Shown: positions 25,252 to 43,064 of the stretch, piece after piece
Layout: each line of letters begins with the position of its first letter
How positions within the stretch are numbered: position 1 is the stretch's first letter
Assembly: GCA_012032275.1 (NCBI GenBank)
Contig: JAAURK010000001.1
Span: 1 to 56,477 of the forward strand
Reading direction: 5' to 3'
DNA length: 56,477 nucleotides
From: Tabrizicola sp.
Lineage (GTDB): Bacteria; Pseudomonadota; Alphaproteobacteria; Rhodobacterales; Rhodobacteraceae
Position numbers and translations under genes: made by a program
Notes under the pieces: model-generated
What the model saw: only the letters and a program-made list of their open reading frames with translations
What the model was told of the DNA's origin: nothing
Database searches by the model: none

Positions 25252-25263
25252 CGGGGTGTCCTT

Positions 25264-26127: not shown

Positions 26128-26852
26128 GCGGCACCCCGCGCGCAGAGATTGGCACTGTCGTCGAAGGCCTCGGACATCTGGCGGGCGCGGAACAGGTTTT
26201 CCGCGGTCAGGACCGTGTCGGTCGCCCCATGCGCCACCTTTTCCCGCGCCAGCAGCAAGGTCTCGGGGAAGTGACGGCGGACCGCCTCCATGTCATGCAG
26301 CACGGCCAGCACGGTGCGCCCTTCGCCATGCCAGCGCTGCACGACCGCCAGAAGGTCGGCGGCGGTCTTGGTATCCAGCGCGGTGAAGGGCTCATCCAGC
26401 AGGATCAACTCGGCGTCCTGCAACAAGAGCCGCGCGAACATCACGCGCTGCATCTGGCCCCCGGACAGGGCCGAGATCGGGCGGCGGTCAAACCCGGTCA
26501 GGCCCACGGCGGCCAGCGCCTCGCCCACCCGCATGGCATCCTTGCCCCGGACCCGGCCAAAGGCACCCACGCGGTGCCACAGGCCCATCGCGACAAAGGC
26601 CCCGACGGCAAGCGGAAAGCTGCGGTCCACCTCGGAGAGTTGCGGCAGATAGGCCAGCCGCGCCGCGCCCCGGTCGATCCGGCCCTCCAAGGGGGGAAGC
26701 TCCCCGGTCAACCCCTTCAGCAGCGTGGATTTCCCCGCGCCGTTCGGGCCGACAATGGCGGTCAGGCTGCCCGTCGCAAGGTCAAGGTCAAGGTGATGGA
26801 CCGCAGGATGGCGGTCATAGCCCAGCGTCAGGTCACGGATGCGCAGCGCCAT
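26124..26852 (-). CDS. znuC: Zinc ABC transporter ATPase ZnuC
   Basis: Start MALRIRDLTLGYD, Walker A GPNGAGKSTLLK, signature LSGGQMQRV. Confidence 0.9.
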   Translation of the reverse strand: MALRIRDLTLGYDRHPAVHHLDLDLATGSLTAIVGPNGAGKSTLLKGLTGELPPLEGRIDRGAARLAYLPQLSEVDRSFPLAVGAFVAMGLWHRVGAFGRVRGKDAMRVGEALAAVGLTGFDRRPISALSGGQMQRVMFARLLLQDAELILLDEPFTALDTKTAADLLAVVQRWHGEGRTVLAVLHDMEAVRRHFPETLLLAREKVAHGATDTVLTAENLFRARQMSEAFDDSANLCARGAA

Positions 26853-26853
26853 A

Positions 26854-26952
26854 TCAGCCCACCACCAGCCAGAGGCCGACCCAAAGTGCTGCGGACAGAC
26901 CAAGCGCCAGCGCCAACCGCAGGGCTGCCCCGGACAAAAGCAAGTCCTTCAT
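26854..26952 (-). CDS. 32-aa hydrophobic micro-ORF between zur and znuC (putative)
   Basis: Hand translation gives MKDLLLSGAALRLALALGLSAALWVGLWLVVG*. The ATG overlaps the zur stop (ATGA) and the stop lies 1 nt before the znuC ATG. Confidence 0.3.
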   Translation of the reverse strand: MKDLLLSGAALRLALALGLSAALWVGLWLVVG

Positions 26953-27335
26953 GCCTTGTCCCCCGCGCAATCACCACAGCGGCCGTGCACCTCGATCGTC
27001 TGCCGCGCCTCGGCGAACCCTTCGGCGGCAAGGCGCTGGTGCAGGCTTTCGAACAGGCTTGGTGCCTCGACGCTGCGCACGGTGCCGCAATCGTCACAGA
27101 TCGCGACCACGCCCGGCGCGGGTGAAGTGACCGCCGCCCAGGCCCGCAGCGTGGCGATGCGCTGCACGACGCCTGCCTCCTCCAGCCCCTTCAACGCGCC
27201 GGAAACCGTGGGTGGGGCGACCGCACCCCCGTCGCGCTGCATCCGGCCCAACAGTTGATAGGCGGTCATCGGCCCATTCGCCCCGCGCAACAGGGCCAGC
27301 ACTTCGGTCTCATTTCGCGTCAACGCTTCGCCCAT
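26949..27335 (-). CDS. zur: Fur-family zinc uptake regulator Zur
   Basis: MGEALTRNETEVLALLRG... winged helix, plus CDDCG and CGDC metal sites. Adjacent to znuCBA. Confidence 0.8.
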   Translation of the reverse strand: MGEALTRNETEVLALLRGANGPMTAYQLLGRMQRDGGAVAPPTVSGALKGLEEAGVVQRIATLRAWAAVTSPAPGVVAICDDCGTVRSVEAPSLFESLHQRLAAEGFAEARQTIEVHGRCGDCAGDKA

Positions 27336-27342
27336 GGCACCC

Positions 27343-27813
27343 TCACAGGATCGTCGGGTTCGGCGCATCGCCATAGACGGCGATGGGGTCGAAGCGGCGC
27401 TCGGTCTCGGTGAACCGCAGCGGGGAACCTGCCGCCGAGCCGAAAGGCACCTCACGGTAAAAGCACGACCGATAGCCGACATGGCAGGACGCGCCCGACC
27501 CAGCGACCGTAACCTGCAGCCACAGCGCATCCTGATCGTCGTCGATCCGCATCCTGACCACCGACTGCGTCAGGCCCGAGGTCGCGCCCTTGTGCCACAC
27601 GGCCCTACGGGTGCGGCTGAAGTAATGCGCCTCGCCCGTCTGAATGGTCAGCCGCAGCGCCTCAGGGTTCATCCAACCCAGCATCAGCACCGTGCCGTCC
27701 GCGGCATCGGTCGTCACGCAGGGCATCAGCCCATCCGCCGCAAAGCGCGGGGCAAGGGCCGCGCCTTCCTCAACCTCAAGGACAGACAGGCGGGGGCCGA
27801 AGGTGACGGTCAT
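27343..27813 (-). CDS. hisI: Phosphoribosyl-AMP cyclohydrolase HisI paralog
   Basis: [38 protein letters not shown]. First gene after the Zur box. Confidence 0.85.
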
Positions 27814-27847
27814 GGCAGCTTGCTTTCAGGGGCGCGATAGCAGATAT

Positions 27848-27864
27848 ACGTTATAGTATAACAT
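27848..27864. promoter_or_regulatory. Zur-box-like palindrome ACGTTATAGTATAACAT in a divergent promoter region
   Basis: GTTATA-G-TATAAC. Lies 34 nt upstream of the hisI start (minus strand) and 11 nt upstream of the COG0523 start (plus strand). Confidence 0.6.
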
Positions 27865-27875
27865 AGCACAAGCTG

Positions 27876-28997
27876 ATGATGTCCCGTATCCCCCTGACCC
27901 TGATCACCGGCTATCTTGGTGCCGGAAAGACAACGCTTCTCAATGCGCTGCTGCGCGATGCCTGGGCGGGCCGCATCGCCGTCGTCGTCAACGAGTTTGG
28001 CGATGTGGGCCTTGACCACGACCTGATCGTCGAGACGACCGAGGAAACGGTCCTTCTCTCCTCTGGCTGCATGTGCTGCACGGTGCGGGGCGATCTGGTG
28101 CAGGCGCTGGAAGGCCTCTTCGAAAAGCGCAGCGCTGGGAAGCTGGACTTCGACCGCATCGTGATCGAGACAACTGGCCTCGCCGATCCGGCGCCGATCC
28201 TGCACACGCTGATCGTGACGCCCGGCCTTGGCGCGGCGCTGCGGATGGATGGGGTGGTCACGGTCTGCGATGCAGTGAACGGCCCTGCCACACTGGATGC
28301 CGGGTTCGAAAGCGTTCAGCAGGTGGCGATGGCGGATGTGCTGGTGCTGTCCAAGACCGACCTCGTGACGCCATCGCAGGCCGAACGTTTCCGGGCGCGG
28401 TTGGCAGCGCTTGCCCCCGGCGCGCGGAATGTAACCGCAACACGCGGGGCCGTGCCCGTTGCCGAACTCTTCGGCCATGGTGCCCCCGACATGAACGGCG
28501 CGTTGCCCGAAGCCGAGGCTTGGGTGAACGCCCCGGCCTACGCGCTATCGTCCTTGCCAATCCCGCCTCTCGCCAAACCACTGGCGCCCTTGGCCACCGG
28601 CCCAACCCATGGCCTCTTCGGGTTGGCCCCGACCCCGGGGTCAAGCCTGATGGCCGCCATCGCCCCGGCGACCCGGCACGACGACCGCATCTCCTCGGTC
28701 TCGATGGTCTTCGACGAGCCAATCCACCCGATGATGCTCGATATCTGGATGGAAACCTTGATCGTCGCCCGCGGTCCCGACATCCTGCGCCTGAAGGCGG
28801 TGATCTGGGCCGACGGCTTCGACACGCCCTTAGTCATCCACGGCGTTCAGCACATCGTTGACCCGCCCGTTCGCCTGGCGCGCTGGACGGGCGAGGATCG
28901 CAGAAGCCGCGTCGTCATCATCGGACGCGATCTCCCGCGCGAGGCATTGCTGGACAGCCTTGAGGTATTGAAGACGCGGCCGTTGGTGCACGGCTGA
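27876..28997 (+). CDS. COG0523 family GTPase (third copy)
   Basis: [23 protein letters not shown], and a Pro/Ala-rich linker before the C-terminal domain. Confidence 0.9.
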   Translation: MMSRIPLTLITGYLGAGKTTLLNALLRDAWAGRIAVVVNEFGDVGLDHDLIVETTEETVLLSSGCMCCTVRGDLVQALEGLFEKRSAGKLDFDRIVIETTGLADPAPILHTLIVTPGLGAALRMDGVVTVCDAVNGPATLDAGFESVQQVAMADVLVLSKTDLVTPSQAERFRARLAALAPGARNVTATRGAVPVAELFGHGAPDMNGALPEAEAWVNAPAYALSSLPIPPLAKPLAPLATGPTHGLFGLAPTPGSSLMAAIAPATRHDDRISSVSMVFDEPIHPMMLDIWMETLIVARGPDILRLKAVIWADGFDTPLVIHGVQHIVDPPVRLARWTGEDRRSRVVIIGRDLPREALLDSLEVLKTRPLVHG

Positions 28998-29101
28998 CGG
29001 GGCGACGAAGGCGACCGACTTTTCGGTTTGTGCTTCTACCTTTTGCTGCCGACTGATTCCATGCTCTACAAGGCCCAGGGCTGACGATACGGGGAAGCAC
29101 T

Positions 29102-30385
29102 ATGGCGAACAATGGGATGGTTTTCGACTATGACGCCATCGTCGTTGGTGCGGGTGCGGCCGGCATCGCGGCCACAGGGGCGCTTTGTGCGGCGGGCCTC
29201 AAGGTAACTTGTGTCGAAGCGGCCAGCCGCATCGGCGGGCGGGCCCACACTGATACCGCGATCTTTGGCGTGCCCTTCGATACCGGTGCCCATTGGCTGC
29301 ACAACGAACACACGAATGCGCTCAAGGCCCCCGGGCTTGCCCTTGGCCTGAACCTGTATCGCGCCCCGCAGAACGGGGTGACCCATGGGCTGAAGGATGA
29401 CAGCGTCCTCTGGGATGAATTCGACCGGCTTTACGACGCCATAAGACAGGCCGCCAAGGCCGACGCCGACACCGACACCGAGCATACGACCGGCAGACCA
29501 ACCGACCGAGCGCTGAGCGATCTGGTTTTGCCAACGACCCCCTGGTCCTACACGGCCGTGTCGATGTTGGCCCTGTCGATCGCGCGCGATCTGCCCGACA
29601 CCTCGCTGCGCGACATTGCAACATGGGAAGGCGGCGATGACTTTTTCTGTCGCGAGGGGTTCGGTCATCTGGTTGCGCGGACAGCCGAGGGGCTGGCGAT
29701 CAGGCTTTCCACACCCGTGACCGGGATCGAATGCCTCCCCTCGGGCGTGCGGGTCAAGACAGGCGCTGGCGAGATCACCGCGCGCGCGGTCATCGTCACA
29801 GCCTCGGTCGGTGTCCTGGCGGAAGACGTGATACGTTTCGACCCGCCGCTGGAGGCAGACCGGCGCGCGGCCTTCGAGTTGGTCACGATGGGCGATTATA
29901 ACCATGTGGCCTTGTTGTTCCGCCCCGGCGCGGTGCCCGTGCCGCCGGACACATGGCTTACCTACCAGCTTCAGCCGGACGACATGGGCATCGCGCGCGG
30001 GGGCGGGTTTCTGTGCAACATCTCGGGCACGAACCTGACCTGCTTTGAGACATCGGGCAGCTTTTCCCGTGCCCTACAGGCGGCCGGGCCCGACACCGCA
30101 ATCGACCATGGGATCGAGACGCTGTCGGGCATCTTCGGGTCGGCCATCCGGCGGGACTTCCTGAAAGGCCATGCGACCGCCTGGCGACATGAGCCTTTTG
30201 TGCGCGGCTCCTATGCAGGGGCGATGCCGGGCGGCCACAGCCAGCGCAAGGTGCTGGGGCGTGCCCATGCCGAAAGGATTCATTTCGCGGGCGAGGCAAG
30301 CCACGTCGGCCAGCAATGCTCGGTCAGCGGGGCCCATCTTGAAGGGCTGCGCGCGGCAAGGGACGTGATTGCCCGGTTGCGCTGA
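29102..30385 (+). CDS. Flavin-containing amine oxidase family protein
   Basis: DAIVVGAGAAGIAA...VEAASRIGGR FAD fold, with C-terminal FAGEA. Confidence 0.8.
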   Translation: MANNGMVFDYDAIVVGAGAAGIAATGALCAAGLKVTCVEAASRIGGRAHTDTAIFGVPFDTGAHWLHNEHTNALKAPGLALGLNLYRAPQNGVTHGLKDDSVLWDEFDRLYDAIRQAAKADADTDTEHTTGRPTDRALSDLVLPTTPWSYTAVSMLALSIARDLPDTSLRDIATWEGGDDFFCREGFGHLVARTAEGLAIRLSTPVTGIECLPSGVRVKTGAGEITARAVIVTASVGVLAEDVIRFDPPLEADRRAAFELVTMGDYNHVALLFRPGAVPVPPDTWLTYQLQPDDMGIARGGGFLCNISGTNLTCFETSGSFSRALQAAGPDTAIDHGIETLSGIFGSAIRRDFLKGHATAWRHEPFVRGSYAGAMPGGHSQRKVLGRAHAERIHFAGEASHVGQQCSVSGAHLEGLRAARDVIARLR

Positions 30386-30436
30386 AGTTCGCCACATAGG
30401 GAAAGACACCCACTGACGGCTTCGAGCTCCAGACCG

Positions 30437-30799
30437 TCAGTGCCGAAATGCGCGGCTCGATACCTGAATGGAGTTCCTGGACGGATCTTTGGCATTTGCA
30501 AACTCATACCCGTCCGCCTTGTGGATCTTGCCAAAATCAAGTCCGTTGGCCCTCGCAGTTTCGCAAAAGGCCGATACATCCTCAACGTCGAACACTAGCT
30601 TTACCAAAACCTGCCCTTCTTTCTGATTTGCCGATGCCGGGTGCAAAAGCAGTGCCATTCCCGAGTTTTGCGCGCTCAACTCGACCACGCGGTCGTGGTC
30701 GGCTCGCAACACCGAAAAGCCGAAGTGCTTGGCGTAAAAGTCCGCCATCTCATCGATCCTGCTCGTGTAGATCACCAATCGCCCGAGTGGTGCGGCCAT
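30437..30799 (-). CDS. VOC/glyoxalase family protein
   Basis: Start MAAPLGRLVIYTSRIDEMADFYAKHFGF. Confidence 0.7.
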   Translation of the reverse strand: MAAPLGRLVIYTSRIDEMADFYAKHFGFSVLRADHDRVVELSAQNSGMALLLHPASANQKEGQVLVKLVFDVEDVSAFCETARANGLDFGKIHKADGYEFANAKDPSRNSIQVSSRAFRH

Positions 30800-30941
30800 C
30801 TTTGCGCCTTCGACAAGCTTCGATTGAGGAGACCTTAGCACGGCACGTTTGGCGACGGCAGCTTTGTCCGCATTGCATCGCCACGCCTCCGGCCGGGAAA
30901 CTGCGTGTCAGGTGGCGAACATCGGGCTGGATGAGGCCAAG

Positions 30942-31442
30942 TCATCCCTGCAAATCTGGCGGCACATCGACGGAAGCAAGCCAGGGTTTGATGTCCAGAA
31001 CGGGCGTGCCGTCGAAGGCATCGATCGCGTCGATCTGCAGAACGCCGGACGCCGGGTCCACCGACAGCAAACGCACCACGGCCAAGGCGACAGGGTTCGG
31101 CCGGGCGGGCGAGCGGAGGGCAAAGGTTCCGGTAGGGCAATCACGATGGGCAGGTGCCTGTACGATCAGATCCCGTCGGGCGCCGCTCATCCAGTAAAGC
31201 AGCACGACCGGATCGCCCACAGACAAACCGAGCATGCCTTCACGGTAGGCTGGCGCGATTTCGACGGCGAAGGGCCCGCCCCGCGCCCGTGCTTCGCGCA
31301 GGTTCTTGGGGCAGTTGCCGTTCGACCAGGGCGAGCGGATCTGCCCGATGATGGCAAGGCCCATGCCGTCAGACAGGACGAATCCGGTCTTCAGGGTCCG
31401 CTCTCCCGGGCGCAGGTCTGAAGGGTCGTTTGCGATCGTCAC
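30942..31442 (-). CDS. TsaA/TrmO-like (UPF0066) SAM-dependent methyltransferase domain protein
   Basis: IGQIRSPW..., RPNPVALAVVRLLSVD, GTPVLDIKPW. ATGA overlap with the CopCD stop. Confidence 0.7.
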   Translation of the reverse strand: MTIANDPSDLRPGERTLKTGFVLSDGMGLAIIGQIRSPWSNGNCPKNLREARARGGPFAVEIAPAYREGMLGLSVGDPVVLLYWMSGARRDLIVQAPAHRDCPTGTFALRSPARPNPVALAVVRLLSVDPASGVLQIDAIDAFDGTPVLDIKPWLASVDVPPDLQG

Positions 31443-33010
31443 GGTTGGCCCATCCCTATTGTCGCCAAGGTTCCTGTCAGTGTGACCTGTTCGAAATCGC
31501 TGATGAGAAGCATCAGTCTGACCTCCCAGGGGCCCGGGCTTGGCAGCGTCACGGGTGCGGTCGACCAGACGCCTGTTTCGTCACGCTTGGCCTGAACGGT
31601 CAGCGGGCCGATGCCGGCAACCGGGTCGGTCAGGTCAAGGCGCACCTCTTGCGGATCAAACGGGACGAAATCAGCATCGGCCAGCATGAGGCTTACCGAC
31701 ACAGCGCCGGGGGGCGTGGCAGACAAGGCCACATCCGCCATCGCCTTGGTGGTGTGGATGTGAACGCTTGGCGGATCGGCAAGCGGGGTTGTCGGAGGGG
31801 GTGCCAGACGAAACCCCATCGCCAGACAGAGGACAACCAGCCCAAGTGCCGCCTCAAGCCCGATCGTTCGGGCCACGGGTGCGGCCTGCCCCCGCTCAAG
31901 CTGCGGCACCGCACGGGCGCGGTGCCAGAGGGCCAGCGCCAGCATGGCGGCCACAAGGGCAAGCTTGACGCCCAGAAGTCGCGCCCATGGCGTGGCCAAT
32001 GTCTCGACGGCCAGCGGGCGCATCAGGATCAACCCTGCACCCGACCCGACCAGCACAAGCACCGCAGCCACGGCCGGGCGCGAGAAACGCCGTAGGAACT
32101 TTGCCCGGCCTGCTGGCGGCAATGGGATCATCGCTGCGGCCAATGGCAACAGCGACCCCACCCAGAACAGCAGGGCCGCGCCATGCAGAAAGGTCAGCGG
32201 CAGGGCGGTCCAGGATGGCGCGGACAGGGCATGGCCCGACAGGGTGAAGGACAAGGCCGCCAGCGCCCATGCAGAAAATGCGGCCAGCCGCCACTGCATG
32301 AGCAGCGCGCCAAGCGCCAGTGCAGCGGCCACCATCGCCAAGGCCACGGTGCGGGCAACGGGTGAGGCCAGCGCCTGCCCCCAGACATCGTCTTGGAAGA
32401 ATGCTCCAAAGGGCAGCCCCAGCCGGTCCAGCCCTTCGGCCCCCAGCCAGAGCACCCCCAACGGCATCACCAACACGGCAAGCGGTGTGGCCAGACGTGC
32501 GACGCCCGGCGGGACCGGCGCGAACAGGGTCTGAAACACCGCCGCACCCACCGAAAGGACCAGGGCCGCCACCATCGCCGCGCGAAAGGCCACAGTGGCC
32601 GAGGCAGTTGCGCTCCCCTCGGCACCGGGCGAGGCAGAGCCCGTCACCTCGCCGACCGAAAACACGAGCGCACCGCCAACGGGGTGGCCGTCGGCCGATG
32701 CCACGCGCCACTGCAAGACATAAGTGCCACGGCCGGCGTCAGGTGGCGGTTGGACCGTCAAGGTCGTGGCCCCTGCCGCACCGACCGCCGCCACTTCTCG
32801 CCCGCCTGGCAGGTGCCAGGTCAGGGCCAGCACGCCGACTTGTTCCGAGAATTCAAGGCTGATGACAGCCGGCACCCCATCAAGCAGGCTGTCTTGCGCA
32901 GGGACGCTGCCACGAAACTCGGCATGGGCATTGGCCATGGAAGCCCACAGCAGAGACAAAAGCCCCAGAAGGACGGCGAAGGCCATGCCTGCAATGCTGG
33001 TGGATTTCAT
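31439..33010 (-). CDS. CopC-CopD fusion protein (YcnJ-like copper transporter)
   Basis: Signal peptide, then HAEFRGSVP (CopC His1). Followed by ~8 TM helices (CopD) and a C-terminal soluble domain. Confidence 0.8.
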   Translation of the reverse strand: MKSTSIAGMAFAVLLGLLSLLWASMANAHAEFRGSVPAQDSLLDGVPAVISLEFSEQVGVLALTWHLPGGREVAAVGAAGATTLTVQPPPDAGRGTYVLQWRVASADGHPVGGALVFSVGEVTGSASPGAEGSATASATVAFRAAMVAALVLSVGAAVFQTLFAPVPPGVARLATPLAVLVMPLGVLWLGAEGLDRLGLPFGAFFQDDVWGQALASPVARTVALAMVAAALALGALLMQWRLAAFSAWALAALSFTLSGHALSAPSWTALPLTFLHGAALLFWVGSLLPLAAAMIPLPPAGRAKFLRRFSRPAVAAVLVLVGSGAGLILMRPLAVETLATPWARLLGVKLALVAAMLALALWHRARAVPQLERGQAAPVARTIGLEAALGLVVLCLAMGFRLAPPPTTPLADPPSVHIHTTKAMADVALSATPPGAVSVSLMLADADFVPFDPQEVRLDLTDPVAGIGPLTVQAKRDETGVWSTAPVTLPSPGPWEVRLMLLISDFEQVTLTGTLATIGMGQP

Positions 33011-33158
33011 CCGAGACTTCCCTAGACTACGAAAAGGGCCCCCGCCGGGCAAAAGACCCGGACGGGGGCAGTCGTGCCCCAGGCCCCACGGGTATGAAGG
33101 GCCAAGGCACGGCCTTGCAGGTTACGGGACGCCTCCCCCCTGCAAGGTCGTGTTCGGT

Positions 33159-34576
33159 TCAGCTGAGCGCGCGCTTCAAGGGCGGCACAGCTGACAGGAC
33201 CAGAAGGTCAAGCACGATCACGGCCAGCAGCGTCAGGCCCAGCATCGGAAAGGCCAGCGACATGGCAAGCGTGATGAGAAGCGCACCCTTGGCATAAGGA
33301 ATGTCCTCGGGCCGTGGCGGTGCCCCAAGACGCGTTCCAGAGGGGCGGCGTTTCACCCACATCACCACGCCCGAGACTGACACCAGCATCAGTGACAGGC
33401 AAAAGAGCGTGTTCAGCGCCAGGTTCCACGCCCCAAGGTCGCCCTCGTGGAACGCGATCCCCCAGGCCATGGCCTTGGCATAGACCGAGTAATCGGCATA
33501 GCGCACATCCGCCAGCACATTGCCGGTGAACTGGTCAATGTGGATCGTGCGGTCTGCCGATGGGCTTGGCCCGTCGTTCGACATGCTGTCATGGCTGATG
33601 GTCCAGACGCCCGTGTCATCGCCCGGCAAGTTCAACTGATAGCGCCGGTCAAAGCCCAGGGTTCCGGCAAAGGCCGTCACGCTGTCGATGGTCACCGGCC
33701 CGGTGACTGCCGCCGTTCCCGCCAGCGAACCAGACTCCGGCATTGGCGTCTGTTCCAGCGTCCAGGGCACTTCTTTCGCAGCGCCGTGGTTCATCTCGGC
33801 ATGGGTGGCATCCGACAGGGGCACTGCATCCCATTTTTCTGCCGGAAAGGTGTTCCAGGCCTGCACGAACTTGGCCCCCCAGAGGCCCGCCCAACTGAGG
33901 CCCGAGATCAGGAAGATCACCAGCACCACGCTGACCCACATCCCTACCGCGCCGTGCAAGGATTTCCAGAAAGCGCGGCCTTTCGCGCCCGCCTGCAACG
34001 TCAGGCTTTTTCCCCAGGTCGCCCCGTTGCGGGGCCAGTGCAGGTAGATGCCCGTTACGGTCAGCAGCAGCGCCAGACTTGCCGCCGCCTCGATCAGCCA
34101 GTCGCCGGTGTTGCCGATCAGGAGGGTGCCGTGGATGTCGGTGGCAAAGTCGTACCAACTGCGCGCCAGGGGAAGGTCTCGACCACCTCAGCCGTGTAGG
34201 GGTTGATGGTCACGCCGGTCGTGTCCTCGCCGACCTTCACGGCAAAGGCTGCGACCCGGCCCTCGCCCATCGGCGAGATGTATTGCGTGGCCACCCCGCC
34301 CGGCACGGCGGCTTCGGCGGCGGCCTGCAACTGGCTGACGGGCAGAAGGGTTTCGCCGACCGTGACATAGGCCCGCTCGCCGTTCAGCTCGGTGACGGAA
34401 CTGACCCACAGCATGATGAGGCCGGTGATCGCCAGCATCAGCAGGAAGGGGATGACGTAAAGCCCGGCGTAGAAGTGCCAACGCCAGGCTGCGAAATACA
34501 GGCGGTTGACAGCGCGCGGGGCGCGGTCTTCGGCCAGTTCGGGGTCTGCGACAAGGGTCATCTGATCGGTCCTCAA
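33159..34576 (-). CDS. PepSY-domain/PepSY-TM membrane protein (PiuB-like), frame broken near 34158-34166
   Basis: ORF 34118..34576 ends ...ETFPWRA. Restoring one base gives SWYDFATDIHGTLLIGNTGDWLIEAAASLALLL..., which runs into ORF 33159..33998. Confidence 0.75.
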
Positions 34577-35094
34577 TGCGAATGGCCGGGTTCAACGATC
34601 TTTACGCCCGGGGCCGGGCCTTCCAGATCATGCGGGTCCTGTCCTTCGGCAGGGATTTCGATCCAGCGTTCGGCGCCGTTCGCACATTCCTGAACAGTCG
34701 GGAAATAGACCATCGAGCCGACGGCGAAGGCATCGGTCATCCGGGCGCTGAAGACGAATTCGTCATAGTGCTCGTCCAGAAGCTCACCCGTCCAGACGAT
34801 CTCCTTGACGCCTTCGGTCAGCTTCGATCCGAAATAGTCGTATTCCTTTTCATAAGCGCCCTTCACCGTTTCCAGCGTCCAGCCCGCCTTGGGCATCGGC
34901 TTGACCGCGATCACGCCTTCGGGGATCTGGATGCGCACCTTCAGCGTGGCTTCGCCGTTGCAACCGTGCGGCACGCGAAGAACAGCCTTGTAGCCCGCCC
35001 CCTGCTGCGCCTCGCCCTTCTCGAAGGTGGCATGGGCAAAGGCCCCGGTTGCGGCCATGGCCAGCACGGCGGCAGCGATCAGAGAGTGTTTCAT
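34573..35094 (-). CDS. ycnI: YcnI/DUF1775 copper-binding protein
   Basis: Signal peptide, then a mature N-terminal HATFE. 173 aa. Stop overlaps the PepSY start. Confidence 0.8.
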   Translation of the reverse strand: MKHSLIAAAVLAMAATGAFAHATFEKGEAQQGAGYKAVLRVPHGCNGEATLKVRIQIPEGVIAVKPMPKAGWTLETVKGAYEKEYDYFGSKLTEGVKEIVWTGELLDEHYDEFVFSARMTDAFAVGSMVYFPTVQECANGAERWIEIPAEGQDPHDLEGPAPGVKIVEPGHSH

Positions 35095-35118
35095 TGTGGT
35101 TCCCTTCCTTTTGGTTCT

Positions 35119-36225
35119 TCAGGGCATCTGTCGTGTTGCACTGGCCGGGTGCCCTTCCGGCCAGGGGTCCGAAAGCGTGGTGTCAGAGAGAAACTCTTCA
35201 TCCGTCAGGCTTTGCAGAAAGGCGATCAGGTCGGCGATCTCGGCTTCGCTGGCGCGAAAACCCTGAATCATGCCGTCCTTCATCGGGTGATCGGCACGGC
35301 CTGCGCTGGCGTAATGCGCGATCACGCCGCGCAGGTCGGGGATCGACCCGTCGTGCATGTAGGGTGCTGTCACCGCCACATTGCGCAAGCTGGGCGTCCG
35401 GAAGCGGCCCGCATCCTGTGGCCGCCCGGTGATCCCGATCAGCCCCGGCGCGCTGGCCGGGTAATCCGCATAAAGCCCGGTGTTGTGATAGCCGGCCTCG
35501 CCCTCGGCCATCAGCGAGGTCTGGATCGTGTCGGTGAAATGCACGCCGGAATGGCAGTGATAGCATTCGAACCTGTGGTCGAAGAACAACTGCTCGCCGC
35601 GCTTGGCGGCATCCGTCAGGGCGTGCTTGTCACCCAGCCGCTTGAAGCGGTCATAGGGCGAGCCGACCGAGATCAGGCTGCGCTGGAACGCCGCCAAAGC
35701 GCGTGTCACCGTGAAGAGGTCGGGCAAAGGCCGGTCGGGGAAGGCCGCCGGAAAGGCGCTGGCATAGTAGGGATCGGTGGCAAGCGTGGCGAAGATCGTG
35801 TTTTCCTGCCCCACGCTGCCCATCTCGTCAGGGTTCTCACCGAACATCGGGATCAGTGCCTGAAACTCCAGACTGTCCATATGCGGGTTGGCCCAGGTCA
35901 GGACCGGCAGGTAGCCCACATTGGCCAGACTTGGGGCGTTCTTCGCCCCCAGCGTGCCGTTGATGCCCACCGCGACCGCACGCCCATCGGTGAAGGCAAG
36001 GTCCTGCGCATGGCACGAGGCACAGGCGACCGTGCCATCTCGCGACAGGCGCGCGTCATAGAAAAGATGGCGACCAAGCTCTACCTTCTCCACCGACATC
36101 GGGTTGTCGGCAGGCACGGGCGGCGGTGGCATCCAGTCGGGCAGCGGCCAGACGTAACCGGCATCAAGGGCAAAGGCCGCCCCGGCCAGCAGGCAGGCCG
36201 CCGCCACGATCAGGGGGCGGCGCAT
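35119..36225 (-). CDS. mbnH: MbnH/MauG-like di-haem cytochrome c peroxidase
   Basis: Two CxxCH sites (CASCH, CYHCH) and a signal peptide. Immediately downstream of an MbnP-like gene. Confidence 0.75.
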   Translation of the reverse strand: MRRPLIVAAACLLAGAAFALDAGYVWPLPDWMPPPPVPADNPMSVEKVELGRHLFYDARLSRDGTVACASCHAQDLAFTDGRAVAVGINGTLGAKNAPSLANVGYLPVLTWANPHMDSLEFQALIPMFGENPDEMGSVGQENTIFATLATDPYYASAFPAAFPDRPLPDLFTVTRALAAFQRSLISVGSPYDRFKRLGDKHALTDAAKRGEQLFFDHRFECYHCHSGVHFTDTIQTSLMAEGEAGYHNTGLYADYPASAPGLIGITGRPQDAGRFRTPSLRNVAVTAPYMHDGSIPDLRGVIAHYASAGRADHPMKDGMIQGFRASEAEIADLIAFLQSLTDEEFLSDTTLSDPWPEGHPASATRQMP

Positions 36226-36243
36226 TGCGTCAGCGCATCGAGA

Positions 36244-37104
36244 TCAGGGACTGCGTGCCCGCGGCACATCCATGTAAGGCAGGCCCAGCTTGCCCATCAC
36301 GGTCATGCAATCGGCATCCTTGGGAAAGGACATGCAGCCGGGCGAGGTTTCGGGGGCGTTCACCGTCAGGTCCGCCTCGGCCAGCACCGGCGCGGGATCG
36401 ATGACGACCGTATTCGCGCTTGGGTCGAACCCCTCCAGCCGGATCGCCATGCGGTTCTCGTTGGCGCAGGCCGTCGGCGCCTCGGTCTTCGACGCCGCAT
36501 CGCACATGGTGGACCCAAGATGCAGGAACCAGCCCTTGGCCATGCCGTGGCCCCCGCCCGCCTCGGCCCCTGCCTCGGCGGTCATGCCCATCATCGCGGT
36601 CGGCAGCAGGTCGATGCGGACAAACTTGTAGCCGTTCTGCCAGTTCCAGAACATCGCCGTGATGTTCAGGGGCGAGGGCAGAAGGGTCGGGTCGCCATGG
36701 TTCTGCGCAAAGGGCACACCGATGGTGAAGACAAGCCCGGTGTAGTCACCTTCCGGCACCGTGCCGCGCAAGGTGGAGTTGGTGCCCGCCGTGCCATTGG
36801 CACAGTTGCCGCTGGCATCCTCGAAGTCCAGCAGGGCCAGACCGTCAAGCTGCCACTGCCCATCCTGCTCCAGCGCGATCGGCTGCAGGCTGCCGTCGGC
36901 CTTCACCATTGCGGCCTCGGACACGAACAGGCGAAAGTCCACCGCCTGCGCCTCGGCGGCTGTACTGCCAAGACCGGCGAAGGTCTCGGAGCAAGAAAAC
37001 GGCTTGCCGCCGATTTCGGCCGCGAAGGGGATGGTCACGGAGATGTCGGCCTGCGTGGGTGTGGCGACAATGGCGGCAAGGGCCGCGAATGCGAAACGGG
37101 ACAT
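36244..37104 (-). CDS. mbnP: MbnP-like copper-binding protein (metallo-mystery pair partner)
   Basis: 286 aa, secreted, with conserved Cys pairs and an NITAMFWNWQNGYKF segment. Pairing with MbnH is the main argument. Confidence 0.65.
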   Translation of the reverse strand: MSRFAFAALAAIVATPTQADISVTIPFAAEIGGKPFSCSETFAGLGSTAAEAQAVDFRLFVSEAAMVKADGSLQPIALEQDGQWQLDGLALLDFEDASGNCANGTAGTNSTLRGTVPEGDYTGLVFTIGVPFAQNHGDPTLLPSPLNITAMFWNWQNGYKFVRIDLLPTAMMGMTAEAGAEAGGGHGMAKGWFLHLGSTMCDAASKTEAPTACANENRMAIRLEGFDPSANTVVIDPAPVLAEADLTVNAPETSPGCMSFPKDADCMTVMGKLGLPYMDVPRARSP

Positions 37105-37169
37105 GTGATTTGCCTCTGGGCTGTGGCGCGGTCAGGCGCCCGGGTTGATCGGATTCAGGAGAAACGCGA

Positions 37170-37530
37170 TCAGGCCAGAGGGGGGGCACGCATCCCGCGC
37201 GCAGGGTCAAGCACCATGCGAAGGCACGGCTTTCACGGGGGGCTATGACCTTGGCAACAAAGACAAGGTCCGCATCATGGAAGGTCAGGCCTGCATCTGG
37301 CAGGTGCGCCGAGGCGATGATGTGACAGGCCGGGCAGTCCCCGTGGTCAGGCAGACCGTCGCCATCTGCATCAGCGCACAGGTCTGCCAGATCGCCCCCG
37401 GCCAGGACATAAGACTGCAGGGCAGCGTCCTGAGCCGTGGGAATGCGATGTGCGAACCCTGTCGCCACAAGGGCAAGGGTCACTACGGTCAAGAGTACCG
37501 CGTGTCGAGGTGCACAAGCGCTTTTTGCAT
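37170..37530 (-). CDS. DUF2946-like small secreted protein with a CPACH motif (boundaries inferred)
   Basis: The as-given ORF 36845..37492 overruns mbnP. Adding one base to the C7/G7 run (37180-37186) gives ...GCVPPPLA* at 37170. Adding one base to the T5 run (37522-37526) gives an ATG start with MQKSACAPRHAVLLTVVTLALVATGFA. Confidence 0.4.
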
Positions 37531-37688
37531 CACATAGCTTTCATCGCCCAACTCATGCGCAATTCAACAGTGGTTCTTTGTCGCGCGGGTTTGCCGGTAC
37601 CGGCTTGCCGACACCATGAAACCAGTTTCTGAATTCGCAGTATCGGTTTGCCATGCAGCAGACCAGTCTGGGTCGCCTCTAGATGAAC

Positions 37689-38693
37689 CTATGATACGCG
37701 CCACAGCCGATAGCGCCCCTGCCCTGTCACCTCGCGGATCAAACCTCGCTCTTCCATCCACGCGATGTTGCGCTGGACCGCAGCACGACTTGCGTTGGTC
37801 ATGGATTCCGCCATCGGCGCAGAGACAAGGGGCCATTCGGTCAGCACGGCGCGCAACGCGCGCGGGGTCTTGCCCGAAAGCGAAACCATTGCGGCTTCGG
37901 CACGTCCGGACCATGCCTCGATATCATCCAGATGTCGCATCGCGGCCCGGGAAGCGGTTTCCGTCCCCTCGAGCCAACACGCCAGTCGGTCAAACGGTGC
38001 GCCGCCGGCGCGCAGCCCCGCCGAAACACTCTGGGCCCCACCCATGGCCAGAGGTGCAAAAACTGCGCCCTTGCCCTCACTGGCCGCGATGCGCGCGGCC
38101 GTGACAGCCGCTTCCATCCGGTCGCCGAGTTGCCCAAGCCCGGCAAGGCTCCAGAGATGAAAGCCCATGCAGGCGCGGGTGATCGGATGCAGATCGGCGG
38201 CTTTTATCACCAGCTCCAGCCAACCGCCTGCACGGTCCGCGAAGGGCTCGGCTTCAACGCCAAGGTTTGTGGGGTCACGGCGGTCCAGAAAGCCGGCAAG
38301 GTCCACTTCCGGACCTGGCCCGCCCGTCAGACGCCTCACTGCCCACCCAGCGCGCGCCAACGCCCCTGTGTCGTCCTGAACGCCCGACTGCCGCATCGAA
38401 ATCCAGAGCGCCAACCGATCTGGACCGACGCGGTCCCCGACGAACCAGCTCAGGTCGGCCGCTTCGATCAGGGCGAGCCTGTGACGCCAACCCTCGGGCC
38501 CACGCCGCAACCGCTCATCCAGTGCACCAAGCCGACCCGCGACACGGGCGAGCCGTGCGGCATGGACCGCCTCGGCCTTCCGCCAGTCGTCGAGAACTGC
38601 CGTCTCACGCGGTTCCGCCCCTGGCCCGGGCGGCAGATCGACGGGCTCCGCCTCGATCGGACCAGACAGGAACCATTGTCGCTTTTCCTTCAC
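37689..38693 (-). CDS. DUF1612/HTH-domain protein (RHE_PE00001-like, plasmid/transposon associated)
   Basis: 334 aa with a C-terminal wHTH (ASRAAVQRNIAWMEERGLIREVTGQGRYRLW). The family call is from memory. Confidence 0.5.
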   Translation of the reverse strand: MKEKRQWFLSGPIEAEPVDLPPGPGAEPRETAVLDDWRKAEAVHAARLARVAGRLGALDERLRRGPEGWRHRLALIEAADLSWFVGDRVGPDRLALWISMRQSGVQDDTGALARAGWAVRRLTGGPGPEVDLAGFLDRRDPTNLGVEAEPFADRAGGWLELVIKAADLHPITRACMGFHLWSLAGLGQLGDRMEAAVTAARIAASEGKGAVFAPLAMGGAQSVSAGLRAGGAPFDRLACWLEGTETASRAAMRHLDDIEAWSGRAEAAMVSLSGKTPRALRAVLTEWPLVSAPMAESMTNASRAAVQRNIAWMEERGLIREVTGQGRYRLWRVS

Positions 38694-39194
38694 GATTTCA
38701 TTGCGTGGTTTTCACATGATTTCCGCAAGGTAGCGCGGGAAGCGGCGCGGGTTTCGGTTTTGCGATTTCAATTTCGTTTGGGACTGCAATAGGGTTCGAA
38801 AAGCACGGTGGCATGACAACGCTCAGCAAGGATCGGCCCCGTGAGCGGGCAGCTTACCGTGCTTCAGACGAGGCTTGGTCGAGGGCGGTTCGGATCGCTC
38901 GCGAACTTGACCGGGTTCTCGACGGCGACTTGCCCATGCGGGAGGCTGTCAGCCGGGCAGCGGTGGAACTGCGCTTGTCGACCCGTCAGGTCTACAATCA
39001 CCTCGCCCGGTATCGAGAGGACCGTCGTGTCTCGTCGCTTCTTCCTCGGACGAACGGCGGGCGGCGGGCGAGGATATCGGCCGGCGTGGAAGCCATCATT
39101 GCCGACACCTTGCGGGAGATGTGGCTGCAGCCAGAACAACCTGATCTTGCGCCTATCGTTGACGAAGTCCGCGCGCGCTGTGCCAGTGAAGGTT

Positions 39195-40249
39195 TAGAGC
39201 AAGTCGCTTTCAATTGCATCCATAGCCTGCGGCGCGAAAGTAGTTTGAGCATTCTTGGCTTGTGAAGAGGTCGCAGACCCGTCCGACTTGTTTCCAGAGG
39301 GCTTGGTAAGTCCTTGCAGCGGCCTTTCGGATCAGGGTTTTCAGCTTGGAGAATGCCATTTCGATGGGGTTCAGGTCGGGTGAGTATGGCGGCAGGAATG
39401 TGATCGTGCAGCCTTTGGCGGCCAGCAGTTCGACGACGCGGGGCGATTTGTGGGAGGAGAGGTTGTCGGCCACCACGACCTGACCGGGCTTGAGGGCTGG
39501 GGCGAGTTCCTTCTCGACATAGGTTTCGAAACTGACGCTGTTCATGGCACCGTCCAGCACCCACGGCGCAATCAGGCCGTCGTGCCCAAGGCCGGCAATG
39601 AAGGTCTGGGTATTCCAATGACCGAAGGGGGCATGGTCAATCAGGCGCTGGCCGACCAAAGCCCAGCCCGTCGTCTTGACGAGGTTGGTCTTGAGGGAGG
39701 TTTCGTCGATAAAGACGAGCCTTTCCAGCATGTTGGCAAAGACAGGTTGACGCTCCTCAATCCACGCCCTGCGCCGCTCGGCTACGTCGGGACGCAACTG
39801 CTCGCTGGCGAGCAGCGTTTTTTCATGGCTGAGGCCAAGCCGGTGCAGCCACTTGCCGACCGAACCGCGATGCACCGCAACGCAATGAACCGAGGCCAAC
39901 TCGACCACGATCTCGTCCAGCGTCAGGTCGCCCTTTTCCACCAGGCGCGCCCGCATCCAGTCGTCGTATGGGCTGAGCTTGCTCCTGCGCTGCCCACCCA
40001 GCGCCTTGGGTTCAAGACCCCCGCTCTCGCGCTTCAGGACTACCATGTCGTTCACAAACCGCGGTGAAACCCGGAAGTGACGCGCAGCCTCGCGATGGCC
40101 GTGACCCTCTTCGACGAAGTCAATGACCCGACTGCGGATCTCAATAGGATGTGCTTTGACCATTCCCAACCCCTGCATATGCCAGGATCAGGGAATCACA
40201 AACCCACAAACTTGGGAATCCTGAATCGATGGAGACGCGACTTGCTCTA
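39195..40249 (-). mobile_element. IS630-family insertion sequence with TA target duplication
   Basis: 13-bp terminal inverted repeats TAGAGCAAGTCGC (39195-39207) and GCGACTTGCTCTA (40237-40249). Encloses a single transposase gene. Confidence 0.8.
39210..40178 (-). CDS. IS630-family DDE transposase
   Basis: 322 aa with an N-terminal HTH, DETSLKTN, DNLSSHK and PPYSPDLNPIE. Confidence 0.85.
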   Translation of the reverse strand: MQGLGMVKAHPIEIRSRVIDFVEEGHGHREAARHFRVSPRFVNDMVVLKRESGGLEPKALGGQRRSKLSPYDDWMRARLVEKGDLTLDEIVVELASVHCVAVHRGSVGKWLHRLGLSHEKTLLASEQLRPDVAERRRAWIEERQPVFANMLERLVFIDETSLKTNLVKTTGWALVGQRLIDHAPFGHWNTQTFIAGLGHDGLIAPWVLDGAMNSVSFETYVEKELAPALKPGQVVVADNLSSHKSPRVVELLAAKGCTITFLPPYSPDLNPIEMAFSKLKTLIRKAAARTYQALWKQVGRVCDLFTSQECSNYFRAAGYGCN

Positions 40250-40606
40250 AAGCCCCCGGCCTACGTCACCGAGGTCAAAAGGATCCCGCGCGTGTTCACC
40301 CCCGAGGAGATCGCCCGGCGACGGCTTTCCGCCGACAAACACTTGCACCGCCTGAGGCCACGTCCAGGATACATCCGTGCAACCCACGCCCTCAAGGTCG
40401 TCCAGATCGATCATATGCCAGCCGATATCCAGTTCATCGAGGTGATCGACGACGACGGCGTATTCGTTGGACGGTCCAGACATTACAAGAACAGCGTAAG
40501 CGGCGCGCGCGGCTTTGACCCGAACCCGACCACAGTGCGTATCCAGATCGCGCGCGCGATAGTCGTGGATCGCTCAAACCGAGGCGCAATGTAAGCGCTG
40601 TCCCGA

Positions 40607-42145
40607 TCACACCGTGGTGCCGTAATTCCATGGGAGCAGGTCGTCGATCTGGCTCTGCTTGTGGCCCCGGACGATGGCGGAGAGCGTGGCTGTCAGCCAA
40701 GCGTGTGGATCGACGCCGTTCATTTTGCAGGTTTCGATGAGCGAGGCGATGACAGCCCAGTTTTCGGCTCCGGCGTCGTGCCCAGCGAAGAGGGCGTTTT
40801 TCCGGTTCAAGGCGATGGGCCGGATAGTGCGTTCGACGGTGTTGTTGTCGATCTCCACGCGGCCATCGGTGAGGAAGCGGCCAAGGCCGTCGCGGTATTT
40901 GGCGATGTAGGCCAGCGCCTCGCCCAGGGGCGATTTGGCGGATACGCGGGCGCGATGGTGCAACAGCCATTCGTCGATACGAGCGAGGATTGGGGCGGAG
41001 CGCTCCTGCCTCGTGGCCAGTCTTGCGGCAGGATCGCTGCCGCGGATGTCTTCCTCGATGGCATAGAGATTGCGGATGAGGACGACCCCCTCCTCGGCAA
41101 TCGGTGCGGGTCCGGTGCGGGTGATCTCGATCAGCTTGCGGCGGGCATGGGCCCAACAGTGCGCCAGCTGTATACCGGGGCCGATCCGGTCCGCTGCAAT
41201 CAGGCGGTTGTATCCGGCATAGCCGTCGACCTGCAGGATGCCGCCAAAGCCCTGCAATATCCGTTCGGCATGCTGTCCGCCCCGACCGGGGGCATAGGTG
41301 AAGACCACGCCCGGTGGTGACGTGCCGCCCCAAGGTCGGTCATCGCGGGCCAGCGCCCAGAAGTATCCGGTCCTGGTTTTTCTGGCCCCTGGATCGAGGA
41401 CCGGGGCGCGGGTCTCGTCCATGAAGAGCTTGGTGGACCGCTTCAGGTCAGCCATCAGCGCGTCATGCACAGGGCGAAGTTCGAAGGCGGCACGACCCAC
41501 CCAATCCGCGAGGGTCGAGCGGTCAAGGTCCACTCCCTGACGGCTGTAGATTTGAGCCTGACGATAAAGCGCAAGATGGTCGGCATATTTGCTGACCAAC
41601 ACATGCGCCACCGTTGCCTCGGTGGGCATCCCGCCCGGGATCAGGCGCGCTGGTGCGGGCACTTGCACTACGCCATCAGTGCAGGAGCGGCAGGCATATT
41701 TGGGACGGCGGGTCACGATGACGCGGAACTGGGCGGGCACGATGTCCAGCCGTTCCGACACATCCTCGCCAATGCAATGCAGACAGCCGCCACAGGCGCA
41801 GGTCAGGCTGTCCGGCTCGATGATCTCCTCGATGCGCGGCAGGTGCTTCGGCAGCGACCCACGGTTGGCGGCACGCGGTTTGACGGGGCGCTTGGCGGCC
41901 CGATCCTCGGCATCCTCTTCGGCATGGATCACCGCCATGGCGGTTTCGAGGTCTTCCAGCGCCAGTTCAAACTGGTCCGGATCGCTCTTCTCAGACCGCC
42001 GTCCGAAGGCCGCCTGTTTGAAGGCCGCCACCAGCATTTCCAGTCGTTCGATCCGCTCGTCCTTGCGAAGATTGCGCGCCTCCGAAGCGATCAGCATCGC
42101 CTTCAGTCCAGCAATTTCCCCAAGCAGATCAGCGGTATTCGGCAT
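40607..42145 (-). CDS. tnpC: IS66-family transposase TnpC
   Basis: 512 aa with a leucine-zipper N-terminus, a Cys cluster and a DDE region. Confidence 0.85.
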   Translation of the reverse strand: MPNTADLLGEIAGLKAMLIASEARNLRKDERIERLEMLVAAFKQAAFGRRSEKSDPDQFELALEDLETAMAVIHAEEDAEDRAAKRPVKPRAANRGSLPKHLPRIEEIIEPDSLTCACGGCLHCIGEDVSERLDIVPAQFRVIVTRRPKYACRSCTDGVVQVPAPARLIPGGMPTEATVAHVLVSKYADHLALYRQAQIYSRQGVDLDRSTLADWVGRAAFELRPVHDALMADLKRSTKLFMDETRAPVLDPGARKTRTGYFWALARDDRPWGGTSPPGVVFTYAPGRGGQHAERILQGFGGILQVDGYAGYNRLIAADRIGPGIQLAHCWAHARRKLIEITRTGPAPIAEEGVVLIRNLYAIEEDIRGSDPAARLATRQERSAPILARIDEWLLHHRARVSAKSPLGEALAYIAKYRDGLGRFLTDGRVEIDNNTVERTIRPIALNRKNALFAGHDAGAENWAVIASLIETCKMNGVDPHAWLTATLSAIVRGHKQSQIDDLLPWNYGTTV

Positions 42146-42224
42146 GCCAGGCTTTTACCAAACCGCCATGGGCTACGCCTCTGGAAAGAGCTGTCTGAGT
42201 CATCCTGCCGCAGGGCTGAACGGC

Positions 42225-42578
42225 TCATTCCACGGCTTCAGGGGCCTTTGCTTCGATGGCCCGAACACGCCGCCAATCCAGCCCGGCAAAGAGCGCCTCG
42301 AACTGCGCGTGGTTCACCAGCATCAACCCGTCCGTCACGGCGGGACAGGTAAACGTATGCTCTTCCAGCCGCTTGTAGGCCATCACCAGGCCTGTGCCGT
42401 CCCAGTAGAGCAGCTTCAAACGATCCGTCTTCCTGGCCCGGAACACGAAGACCGTCCCGGTAAACGGATCCTTGCGCAACTCGTTCTTCACTATCGCGGC
42501 CAGGCTGTCATGGCCTTTGCGGAAGTCGATGGGCTTGGTCGCCACCATGATCCGCACCCGGTTCGACGGGAAGATCAT
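42225..42578 (-). CDS. tnpB: IS66 Orf2-like protein TnpB
   Basis: 117 aa: MIFPSNRVRIMVATKPIDFRKGHDSLAA..., typical IS66 orf2. Confidence 0.85.
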   Translation of the reverse strand: MIFPSNRVRIMVATKPIDFRKGHDSLAAIVKNELRKDPFTGTVFVFRARKTDRLKLLYWDGTGLVMAYKRLEEHTFTCPAVTDGLMLVNHAQFEALFAGLDWRRVRAIEAKAPEAVE

Positions 42579-42949: not shown

Positions 42950-43064
42950 ACTGCGCTCCCGATGGACTCCCACTGACACCTCCCGTGCAAATCTCCGCAC
43001 GGGCCGCATCGCAGCTTACGGATTCAACAGGAAGGTGGGGTCAGGACAGCGCTTACGGCGCAAT

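Follow-up and report, generated by a model that had tools for sequence, protein, structure and literature searches.

What kind of unit do the copper genes of this locus form, and how would it be switched on and off? The stretch analysed here (the window) comprises 56,477 nt of Tabrizicola sp., contig JAAURK010000001.1 (assembly GCA_012032275.1), numbered along the forward strand, and the genes in question lie on its minus strand between 30942 and 37530 in the order leader, mbnP, mbnH, ycnI, pepSY, copCD and trmO (Table 1). The initial annotation described them as a seven-gene copper operon joining an MbnP/MbnH pair to a YcnI, PepSY and CopCD import set, and our analysis supports the reading as a copper operon. 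In our judgement the locus is probably a CruR-class copper-acquisition operon, which copper limitation would switch on and arrest-dependent unmasking of mbnP would control. As such it joins a class of CruR-headed copper operons catalogued in 2022; its combination of partners is unusually complete, and its novelty is modest.

[quoted passage not shown] The first ORF of the Tabrizicola locus has a signal-like N-terminus and carries the corresponding landmarks, i.e. ATG at 37530, CPAC at 37336-37325, RAPP at 37190-37179 and a stop codon at 37172-37170. As sequenced, it spans three frames: the ATG frame, which reads MQKALVHLDTRYS and then a stop, ends after 13 codons; CPAC is found in a second frame, which misses RAPP and reads 260 nt into mbnP; RAPPLA and its stop codon are found in the third. 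Comparison with homologues indicated that one base has apparently been lost near 37507 and another near 37223, and a 1-nt gap is directly visible in the DNA alignment with three homologous loci. The distance from the second Cys codon to the Arg codon of RAPP is 134 nt in the window, i.e. 45 codons minus one base. The repaired leader comprises 120 aa, shares 87% identity across 100% of its length with a database protein that is also 120 aa long (P0121), and exhibits the geometry CxxC, 45 residues, RAPP, 2 residues, stop; this spacing is exact in 111 of 120 relatives, mostly in the form CPAC...RAPPLA (RGPP in one). The Pfam profile hidden Markov model (HMM) of DUF2946 (PF11162, cut-off 23.7 bits) found no match in the leader as encoded, and scored 15.2 bits with the repaired version and 15.8-21.1 bits with its homologues; a precomputed match exists for only 3 of the 120 relatives. 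Membership of the CruR type is thus not returned by the HMM, but is supported by the defining motifs and the position of the ORF, in the window only after repair of the two deletions. The CPACH protein had been labelled DUF2946-like, which remains apt in the sense of a divergent DUF2946 family, but it appears best read as a CruR-type regulatory upstream ORF and not as a structural protein. The spacer between leader and mbnP is 65 nt long in the window and 60-79 nt in 18 other loci (19 leader-containing loci, window counted).

Folding of the junction between leader and mbnP predicted that the arrest-site codons pair with the mbnP ribosome-binding site. A sequence complementary to the Shine-Dalgarno element (anti-SD), CCUCUGG (37181-37175), formed by the second Pro codon, the Leu codon and the first base of the Ala codon, is predicted to pair with the mbnP Shine-Dalgarno element (SD) CCAGAGG (37119-37113), while GCGGGAUG/GUG (37198-37187), the codons just before and at the Arg of RAPP, is predicted to pair around the mbnP AUG (37107-37096); two small hairpins are predicted in the 65-nt intergenic region, between the long helices. 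The minimum-energy fold has -52.1 kcal/mol (z = -3.07). The same closing helix and architecture were obtained for 16 of 17 homologous leaders, each folded singly, including a divergent subgroup in which CCUG..UCUGAC pairs with GUCAGA.CAGG. Between leader and SD, 6.5-11.9 pairs are expected, and only 0.5-3.6 once the last 24 nt of the leader are shuffled. Of the cells in the alignment, 73% pair, where slid controls reach 30-49%; the covariation score is 0.18 (controls: 0.04-0.09), and two loci (L003 and L005) carry a compensatory pair, CCUUUGG/CCAAAGG. In the literature accessible to us, no pairing of arrest codons with the SD and start codon of mbnP was found. A C-rich, G-poor tract of rut-like composition (37200-36980, minus strand; C/G up to 2.25, operon mean 1.0) spans the leader-mbnP spacer and the first ~100 nt of mbnP, and its composition would be compatible with Rho loading when mbnP is untranslated.

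These elements could act as a switch. When copper is scarce, the ribosome would arrest on RAPP of the leader with the second Pro codon in the A site and, because of this placement, would occupy the anti-SD strand, covering the sequence otherwise paired to the SD and start codon of mbnP. The arrest would open mbnP for translation, which in turn would keep Rho off the C-rich 5' part of the gene. Copper bound to the nascent CxxC would release the arrest, termination would follow two codons on, the helix would re-form and the operon would be off.

The genes downstream of the leader fit a function in copper acquisition, and all six pass curated models (MbnP, MbnH, DUF1775/YcnI, PepSY_TM, CopC-CopD and TrmO_N). 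MbnP scores 277.7 bits with TIGR04052 (cut-off 140) and 120.4 bits with PF20243 (cut-off 27), possesses a signal peptide, a WNW motif and six Cys, and aligns with the MbnP structure 7L6G in the PDB (E = 6e-40), WNWQ on WNWQ and with all six Cys positions matched; an exact look-up of its sequence gave no record. MbnH scores 406.2 bits with TIGR04039 (cut-off 362.85) and 160.9 bits with Pfam CCP_MauG, and contains CASCH and CYHCH motifs; an identification as MauG proper was rejected (172 bits, cut-off 443.85). With both proteins above the NCBIfam equivalog cut-offs and their genes 18 nt apart, the identity of the pair proposed in the initial annotation is upheld. Among the families for which HMM searches had been suggested, MbnP, MbnH and DUF1775 exceed their cut-offs, but DUF2946 does not, even with the repaired leader. 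The WxW motif of MbnP holds the Trp that becomes kynurenine in a reaction carried out by MbnH (PMC11951088). Like the Methylosinus trichosporium OB3b proteins (7L6G; PMC11951088; PMC3621798), those of the window form an adjacent pair with the WxW and six-Cys pattern in MbnP and two haem motifs in an MbnH that passes the family equivalog; unlike them, they are embedded in an import operon and not in a methanobactin operon with MbnA/B/C and MbnT. The earlier statement that the window lacks methanobactin and TonB genes agrees with a domain scan of its ~58 ORFs, which revealed no TonB_dep_Rec, Plug, MbnB/MbnC or MbnT-type domain, although a tiny mbnA could escape such a scan. A TonB receptor can be taken to be absent from the window, since every ORF long enough to encode one (above 600 aa) is otherwise explained.

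The YcnI-type protein covers the full DUF1775 model (152.1 bits, cut-off 25), and cleavage is predicted between AFA and HATF, which would leave a mature N-terminal His, as had been proposed; a phmmer search of the PDB found no solved structure even at E<=10. In Bacillus subtilis, YcnI binds Cu(II) through a monohistidine brace with Glu50 and Trp137 as partners (PMC8424229), and YcnI and YcnJ exchange copper (PMC12362106). The PHGC motif of the window protein suggests, at the sequence level, that it belongs to the proteobacterial class with His and Trp but no Glu (PMC8424229). The next-but-one gene encodes CopC (67.8 bits) and CopD (65.6 bits) in one protein, with a mature N-terminus HAEF and an ADGH (DxH) motif, in agreement with the fusion described initially; the NCBIfam equivalogs of stand-alone CopC and CopD were not reached by it. 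Its start is probably the ATG at 33010, and the gene call on a second assembly introduced below (L055) gives 523 aa. The copCD gene of the closest metagenome-assembled genome (MAG), L001 (14102-15665), is itself split into ORFs of 127 and 423 aa, so that frameshifts in this copper gene set are not peculiar to the window. The combination of an N-terminal-His DUF1775 protein with a CopC-CopD importer, both tied to copper acquisition, recalls the B. subtilis ycnKJI system (PMC8424229, PMC12362106, PMC13344008), from which the window differs in having no YcnK repressor but leader-peptide regulation instead, a soluble YcnI with the proteobacterial PHGC motif and no C-terminal transmembrane (TM) helix, and no YtkA domain on the fusion protein at E<=0.01.

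The pepSY gene is split in the window into two ORFs (34118-34576 and 33159-33998) owing to a missing G at 34158, and at the junction one frame reads ...PWRA/VGT... while the other reads WYDFATDIHG.... Both halves match the PepSY_TM model, and the repaired protein reaches 203.5 bits across the whole model. Four His residues (34, 149, 208 and 377) are conserved without exception among 14 relatives. His34, His149 and His208 coincide in the alignment with His residues of Pseudomonas aeruginosa FoxB, a ferrisiderophore reductase (7ABW), and His377 was assigned, more tentatively, via an internal repeat. CrpH, the PepSY_TM protein of B. pertussis, is a probable periplasmic copper reductase tied to copper acquisition (PMC13038864), and the reductase-like step suggested earlier for the window protein agrees with this 2026 work and with the invariant His residues at FoxB-like haem positions. 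FoxB shares the four TM helices, the His pairs for two haems and the periplasmic PepSY domains, but its similarity to the window protein is weak (E = 0.0018), and the window context is copper and not siderophore. Two further His residues not shared with FoxB, His259 (SDATHAEMNHG) and His346 (DRTIHID), both periplasmic, are also invariant in all 14 relatives and might together make up a metal site within the periplasmic cavity.

Do these genes form one unit? Gaps of 18 nt (mbnP-mbnH) and 24 nt (mbnH-ycnI) are followed by a 4-nt overlap of ycnI and pepSY (a 12-nt gap if the L055 start is used), the largest gap is that between pepSY and copCD (106-148 nt), and copCD overlaps trmO by 4 nt, so that the remaining gaps range from a 4-nt overlap to ~65 nt. 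Together with the gene order, which is shared with three other loci (L001, L002, L064) and, minus PepSY_TM, with five more (L016, L017, L057, L058, L059), this tight spacing substantiates the single unit assumed initially. The positions and identities given for the minus-strand order hold as well, but leader and PepSY_TM are not intact ORFs as sequenced. No promoter was found upstream of the leader, promoter and terminator counts were not above those in shuffled sequence, an Rfam scan of 30000-39000 (E<=1) gave only a chance match to an internal ribosome entry site, and no copper-responsive transcription factor was found in the window. An 890-aa plus-strand ORF (34576-37248) was dismissed as a GC-rich antisense artefact, with its GC peak at codon position 1 (0.79) and not position 3 (0.64). 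A glyoxalase gene (30437-30841) was likewise rejected as an operon member; it is missing 3' of trmO in four loci (L001, L057, L058, L059).

By analogy with the families concerned, MbnH would oxidise a Trp of the WxW motif to kynurenine and so provide the periplasmic copper site of MbnP, YcnI would bind Cu(II) via its N-terminal His, the di-haem PepSY_TM protein, working on the periplasmic face, would reduce Cu(II) to Cu(I), and the CopC domain would pass copper to CopD for import. The TrmO_N protein would act somewhere in the cytoplasm.

The last gene was labelled TrmO-like in the initial annotation, which is correct with regard to the TrmO_N domain (Pfam, 82.5 bits) but not to the TrmO equivalog TIGR00104, whose cut-off of 93.25 bits is just missed (91.8 bits). 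With only the N-terminal domain of the ~235-aa two-domain enzyme present, an identity as true TrmO (tRNA m6t6A37 methyltransferase) was rejected. The nearest structure is 3OKX, the uncharacterised YaeB-like protein RPA0152 (169 aa); the window protein has no signal peptide, its Cys residues are not conserved, and His99 is invariant. The gene lies 3' of copCD in L001, L002, L016, L055, L057, L058, L059, L064, L092 and L138, and wherever the contig continues it comes next after copCD, mostly with a 4-nt overlap. It also ends a second operon type, composed of a cruR-like ORF, pepSY, PCuAC and trmO (L069, 7434-10466; L095, 7432-10353), and hence TrmO_N tracks copper modules even without CopCD. The names TrmO, UPF0066 and PF01980 were not found in the supplements of two DUF2946 papers, nor was TrmO_N found in the DUF2946 literature as far as this was accessible.

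A survey of 54 species-level MbnP loci and of 80 metagenome loci with PepSY_TM relatives placed the window among its kin. A cruR-like ORF precedes mbnPH in 13 Paracoccaceae and allied loci, all within the 19 closest relatives (L001-L019), and YcnI and CopCD occur within 10 kb of MbnP in 7 of the 54 loci. The full order with PepSY_TM was found in two of the 54, a Rhodobacter MAG (L001) and a Tabrizicola MAG (L002), and again in one metagenome relative (L064), i.e. in at least three other genomes or contigs; the order cruR-mbnP-mbnH-ycnI-copCD-trmO, without PepSY_TM, was found in L016, L017, L057 (Neotabrizicola shimadae), L058 and L059. A cruR-like ORF lies directly ahead of the PepSY_TM relative in 40 of the 80 metagenome loci, and the YcnI/CopCD context occurs in only three of them (L064, L092, L138). 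Elsewhere the parts stand in other combinations: cruR-mbnPH alone (L004-L010), PCuAC-DUF2946-PepSY on a Sagittula plasmid, a 120-aa cruR-like ORF followed by DUF1775, CopC and CopD on a Gemmobacter fulvus plasmid, and mbnPH-PCuAC-ycnI-copCD-PCuAC-Sco in L011 and L013 (PCuAC and Sco called by eye from N-terminal sequences). Across Rhodobacterales, cruR with mbnPH, cruR with ycnI-copCD and cruR with pepSY and PCuAC are shuffled as the modules of a toolkit, and the locus represents one of its permutations. MbnPH-like genes, YcnI, CopC, PCuAC, Sco, TonB receptors and PepSY_TM were listed as cruR-operon cargo by Roy et al. 2022 (PMC9426467, section 10), and since DUF2946-headed operons with MbnPH, YcnI, CopC and PepSY_TM had thus been described, the novelty of the locus is lower than was first implied.

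Among the closest known systems, cruR-crtA(bfrG)-crpH of B. pertussis (PMC9426467; PMC12914433; PMC13038864) likewise includes a PepSY_TM protein with FoxB-like His residues. The window departs from it by the missing TonB-dependent transporter, by its cargo of MbnPH, YcnI, CopCD and TrmO_N, by a leader family under the Pfam DUF2946 cut-off, and by a spacer of 65 nt that masks the SD, where that of B. pertussis measures 162 nt and is subject to Rho-dependent termination. Several observations weigh against a CruR-class acquisition operon controlled by unmasking of mbnP. Leader and PepSY_TM are broken as sequenced, the leader stays below the Pfam DUF2946 gathering threshold, and the contigs of the second assembly end at 36432 and ~37588, either side of the cruR region, leaving no second-assembly view of the leader. 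RNAalifold, applied to the mixed 17-sequence alignment, returned two local hairpins only and did not recover the long-range helices, for which reason the named structure was tested and the sequences were folded singly; as the structure was derived from one aligned sequence and the sequences are related, the support for it is suggestive only. No outer-membrane importer was found among the ~58 ORFs scanned in the window, and the literature has so far proved neither what MbnP does physiologically nor that CrpH-type proteins are active as reductases. Finally, CutF, a DUF2946 relative of Rhodobacter capsulatus, stalls with copper present and thereby turns its operon on (PMC9973294), and in the window the copper response may run in either direction.

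Or perhaps the locus follows the logic of CutF? In this main rival explanation, copper would induce stalling, the SD stem-loop would melt and the operon would be on at high copper, its products buffering or detoxifying periplasmic copper; we regard this as unlikely. The host lineage (Paracoccaceae) is near R. capsulatus, and the first descriptions of CopC and CopD came from resistance operons. The short 65-nt intergenic region with its SD-masking structure resembles that between cutF and cutO and is unlike the 162-nt cruR-crtA spacer (PMC9973294; PMC8456105), and the cutF-cutO-cutG system also has a DUF2946-related exported leader with the 45-residue spacing and a stem-loop over the SD of the next gene (PMC8456105, PMC9973294, bioRxiv 10.1101/2025.02.05.636593). 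However, the leader of the window has CxxC and RAPP as in CruR, and not the CxxxC and PEPEGPPPRL tail of CutF, and where high copper turns on a detoxifying multicopper oxidase in R. capsulatus, the unit contains neither an efflux pump nor a multicopper oxidase. Copper limitation, moreover, is what turns on the YcnJ/YcnI and methanobactin operons. A link to the uptake of copper exists for YcnJ and YcnI of B. subtilis (PMC8424229, PMC12362106), and one to its acquisition for CrpH of B. pertussis (PMC13038864).

A reading in which the frameshifts are real appears about as improbable; the unit would then be a relic in decay, carried on a mobile element rich in insertion sequences (IS) and either silent, deregulated or functional only in part. 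Three frame-breaking 1-nt deletions fall within 6.6 kb, the window and L055 show the same split of ZnuA, an efflux pump is distributed over three ORFs, and the window contains a type IV secretion system as well as elements of the IS630, IS66, IS3 and IS5 types. Yet L055, a 13.3-kb Logan contig from run SRR11470445 that covers window positions 23096-36432, shows zero substitutions and just two 1-nt indels: at 34158 it reads GCAGGTTGG where the window reads GCAGTTGG, leaving PepSY_TM intact (467 aa), and at 28413 a run of G6 stands in place of the G5 of the window, so that, as a mirror image, CobW is broken in L055 and intact in the window. Such a pattern is typical of homopolymer miscalls, and an assembly error is likely for PepSY_TM, because the zero-mismatch assembly has the gene intact. 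An exact-pattern metagenome scan across the second leader frameshift, with optional bases, gave no match. Apart from the three 1-nt deletions, no frame of the unit is interrupted and each structural gene is recognised by its family model, and since the losses are single bases in short runs, one of them absent from the zero-mismatch assembly, the frameshifts of leader and PepSY_TM are most likely assembly errors. We give still less credit to several transcription units on one strand (cruR-mbnPH, ycnI-pepSY and copCD-trmO) with MbnPH not coupled to the import set. The modules do occur separately elsewhere (L004-L010, the G. fulvus plasmid, and cruR-pepSY-PCuAC in Sagittula, L069 and L095), and in the gap before copCD there is a terminator-like hairpin with a T-run (33059-33036, minus strand). 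That hairpin, however, is not distinguishable from chance in the scan (7 terminator-like sites vs 5.7 in shuffles), the gaps from mbnP to pepSY are short or negative, no leader ORF precedes ycnI or copCD in the window, and the complete order is conserved in the three or more genomes and contigs named above.

Table 1. Features of the copper locus and of its surroundings in the window
Feature	Position	Strand	Basis
Putative CruR-type leader ORF, divergent DUF2946	37170..37530	-	motifs, spacing, homologues
Predicted RNA structure, arrest-site codons to mbnP ribosome-binding site	37090..37203	-	folding, homologues
MbnP-family periplasmic copper-binding protein	36244..37104	-	TIGR04052, PF20243, 7L6G alignment
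MbnH-family di-haem MauG-like enzyme	35119..36225	-	TIGR04039, CCP_MauG
Soluble periplasmic DUF1775/YcnI-type copper-binding protein	34573..35094	-	Pfam DUF1775
PepSY_TM membrane protein, FoxB/CrpH type	33159..34576	-	Pfam PepSY_TM
CopC-CopD fusion, YcnJ-like inner-membrane copper importer	31439..33052	-	Pfam CopC, CopD
Short TrmO_N-only cytoplasmic protein, 166 aa	30942..31442	-	Pfam TrmO_N
COG0523 CobW paralogues (three)	18132-19346, 22335-23297, 27876-28997		
ZnuC	26124-26903		
ZnuB	25264-26127		
PRA-CH HisI paralogue	27343-27813		

The surroundings of the locus look like those of a conjugative element. A VirB-type type IV secretion set at 352-11468 (VirB11/T2SSE, TrbI, CagX/VirB9, VirB8, TrbL/VirB6, VirB4 and two SLT transglycosylases) makes it probable that the window is part of a conjugative plasmid or of an integrative and conjugative element. 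It is followed by a metal-starvation (Zur-like) island (14532-28997), which holds, besides the genes listed in Table 1, DUF1826, DUF1636, a set of FecCD, Peripla_BP_2 and ABC proteins, and the ZnuA gene in its two ORFs. Directly upstream of the leader lies a gene for a 334-aa protein with a weak HTH_13 match (37689-38693, minus strand); the second-assembly contig with this gene is 1.1 kb long and ends short of cruR. IS elements cluster at 38813-43009, 48769-49803 and 55492-56115, comprising an IS630-type transposase (39210-40178) apparently inside another transposase gene (38813-39265 and 40229-40594), a complete IS66 (40607-43009; orfA, TnpB and transposase), an IS3-type rve element and an IS5-type DDE element. 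The efflux pump mentioned above, an AcrB-type resistance-nodulation-division protein (region 43364-48452), follows a HlyD-type adaptor, a TetR regulator being oriented divergently, and its three ORFs (45966-46532, 44464-45990 and 43364-44458) lie in three frames, which implies two more frameshifts in the window.

Copper import for respiratory oxidases and NosZ is poorly understood in Gram-negative bacteria. Because nearly all candidate periplasmic and inner-membrane players stand behind one leader, the locus offers a compact genetic system for finding out in which order they act and what MbnP does outside methanotrophs. More tentatively, we propose as a possibility for the Rhodobacterales CruR-type leaders at large that a ribosome arrested on the anti-SD formed by the leader's own codons (Pro-Leu-Ala-stop) unmasks the first cargo gene, and that the short TrmO_N protein is a dedicated component of these operons. 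If true, arrest-dependent unmasking, which has not yet been described for CruR-type leaders, would merge the CruR model, in which copper relieves the arrest, with the stem-loop melting of CutF, and a TrmO_N protein closing both the mbnPH-ycnI-copCD and the pepSY-PCuAC operon types would point to a step of copper delivery in the cytoplasm, dependent on S-adenosylmethionine or of another kind. The pairing of the arrest codons with the mbnP ribosome-binding site may thus serve as a testable link between two published DUF2946 mechanisms, and the recurring TrmO_N partner as a new lead.

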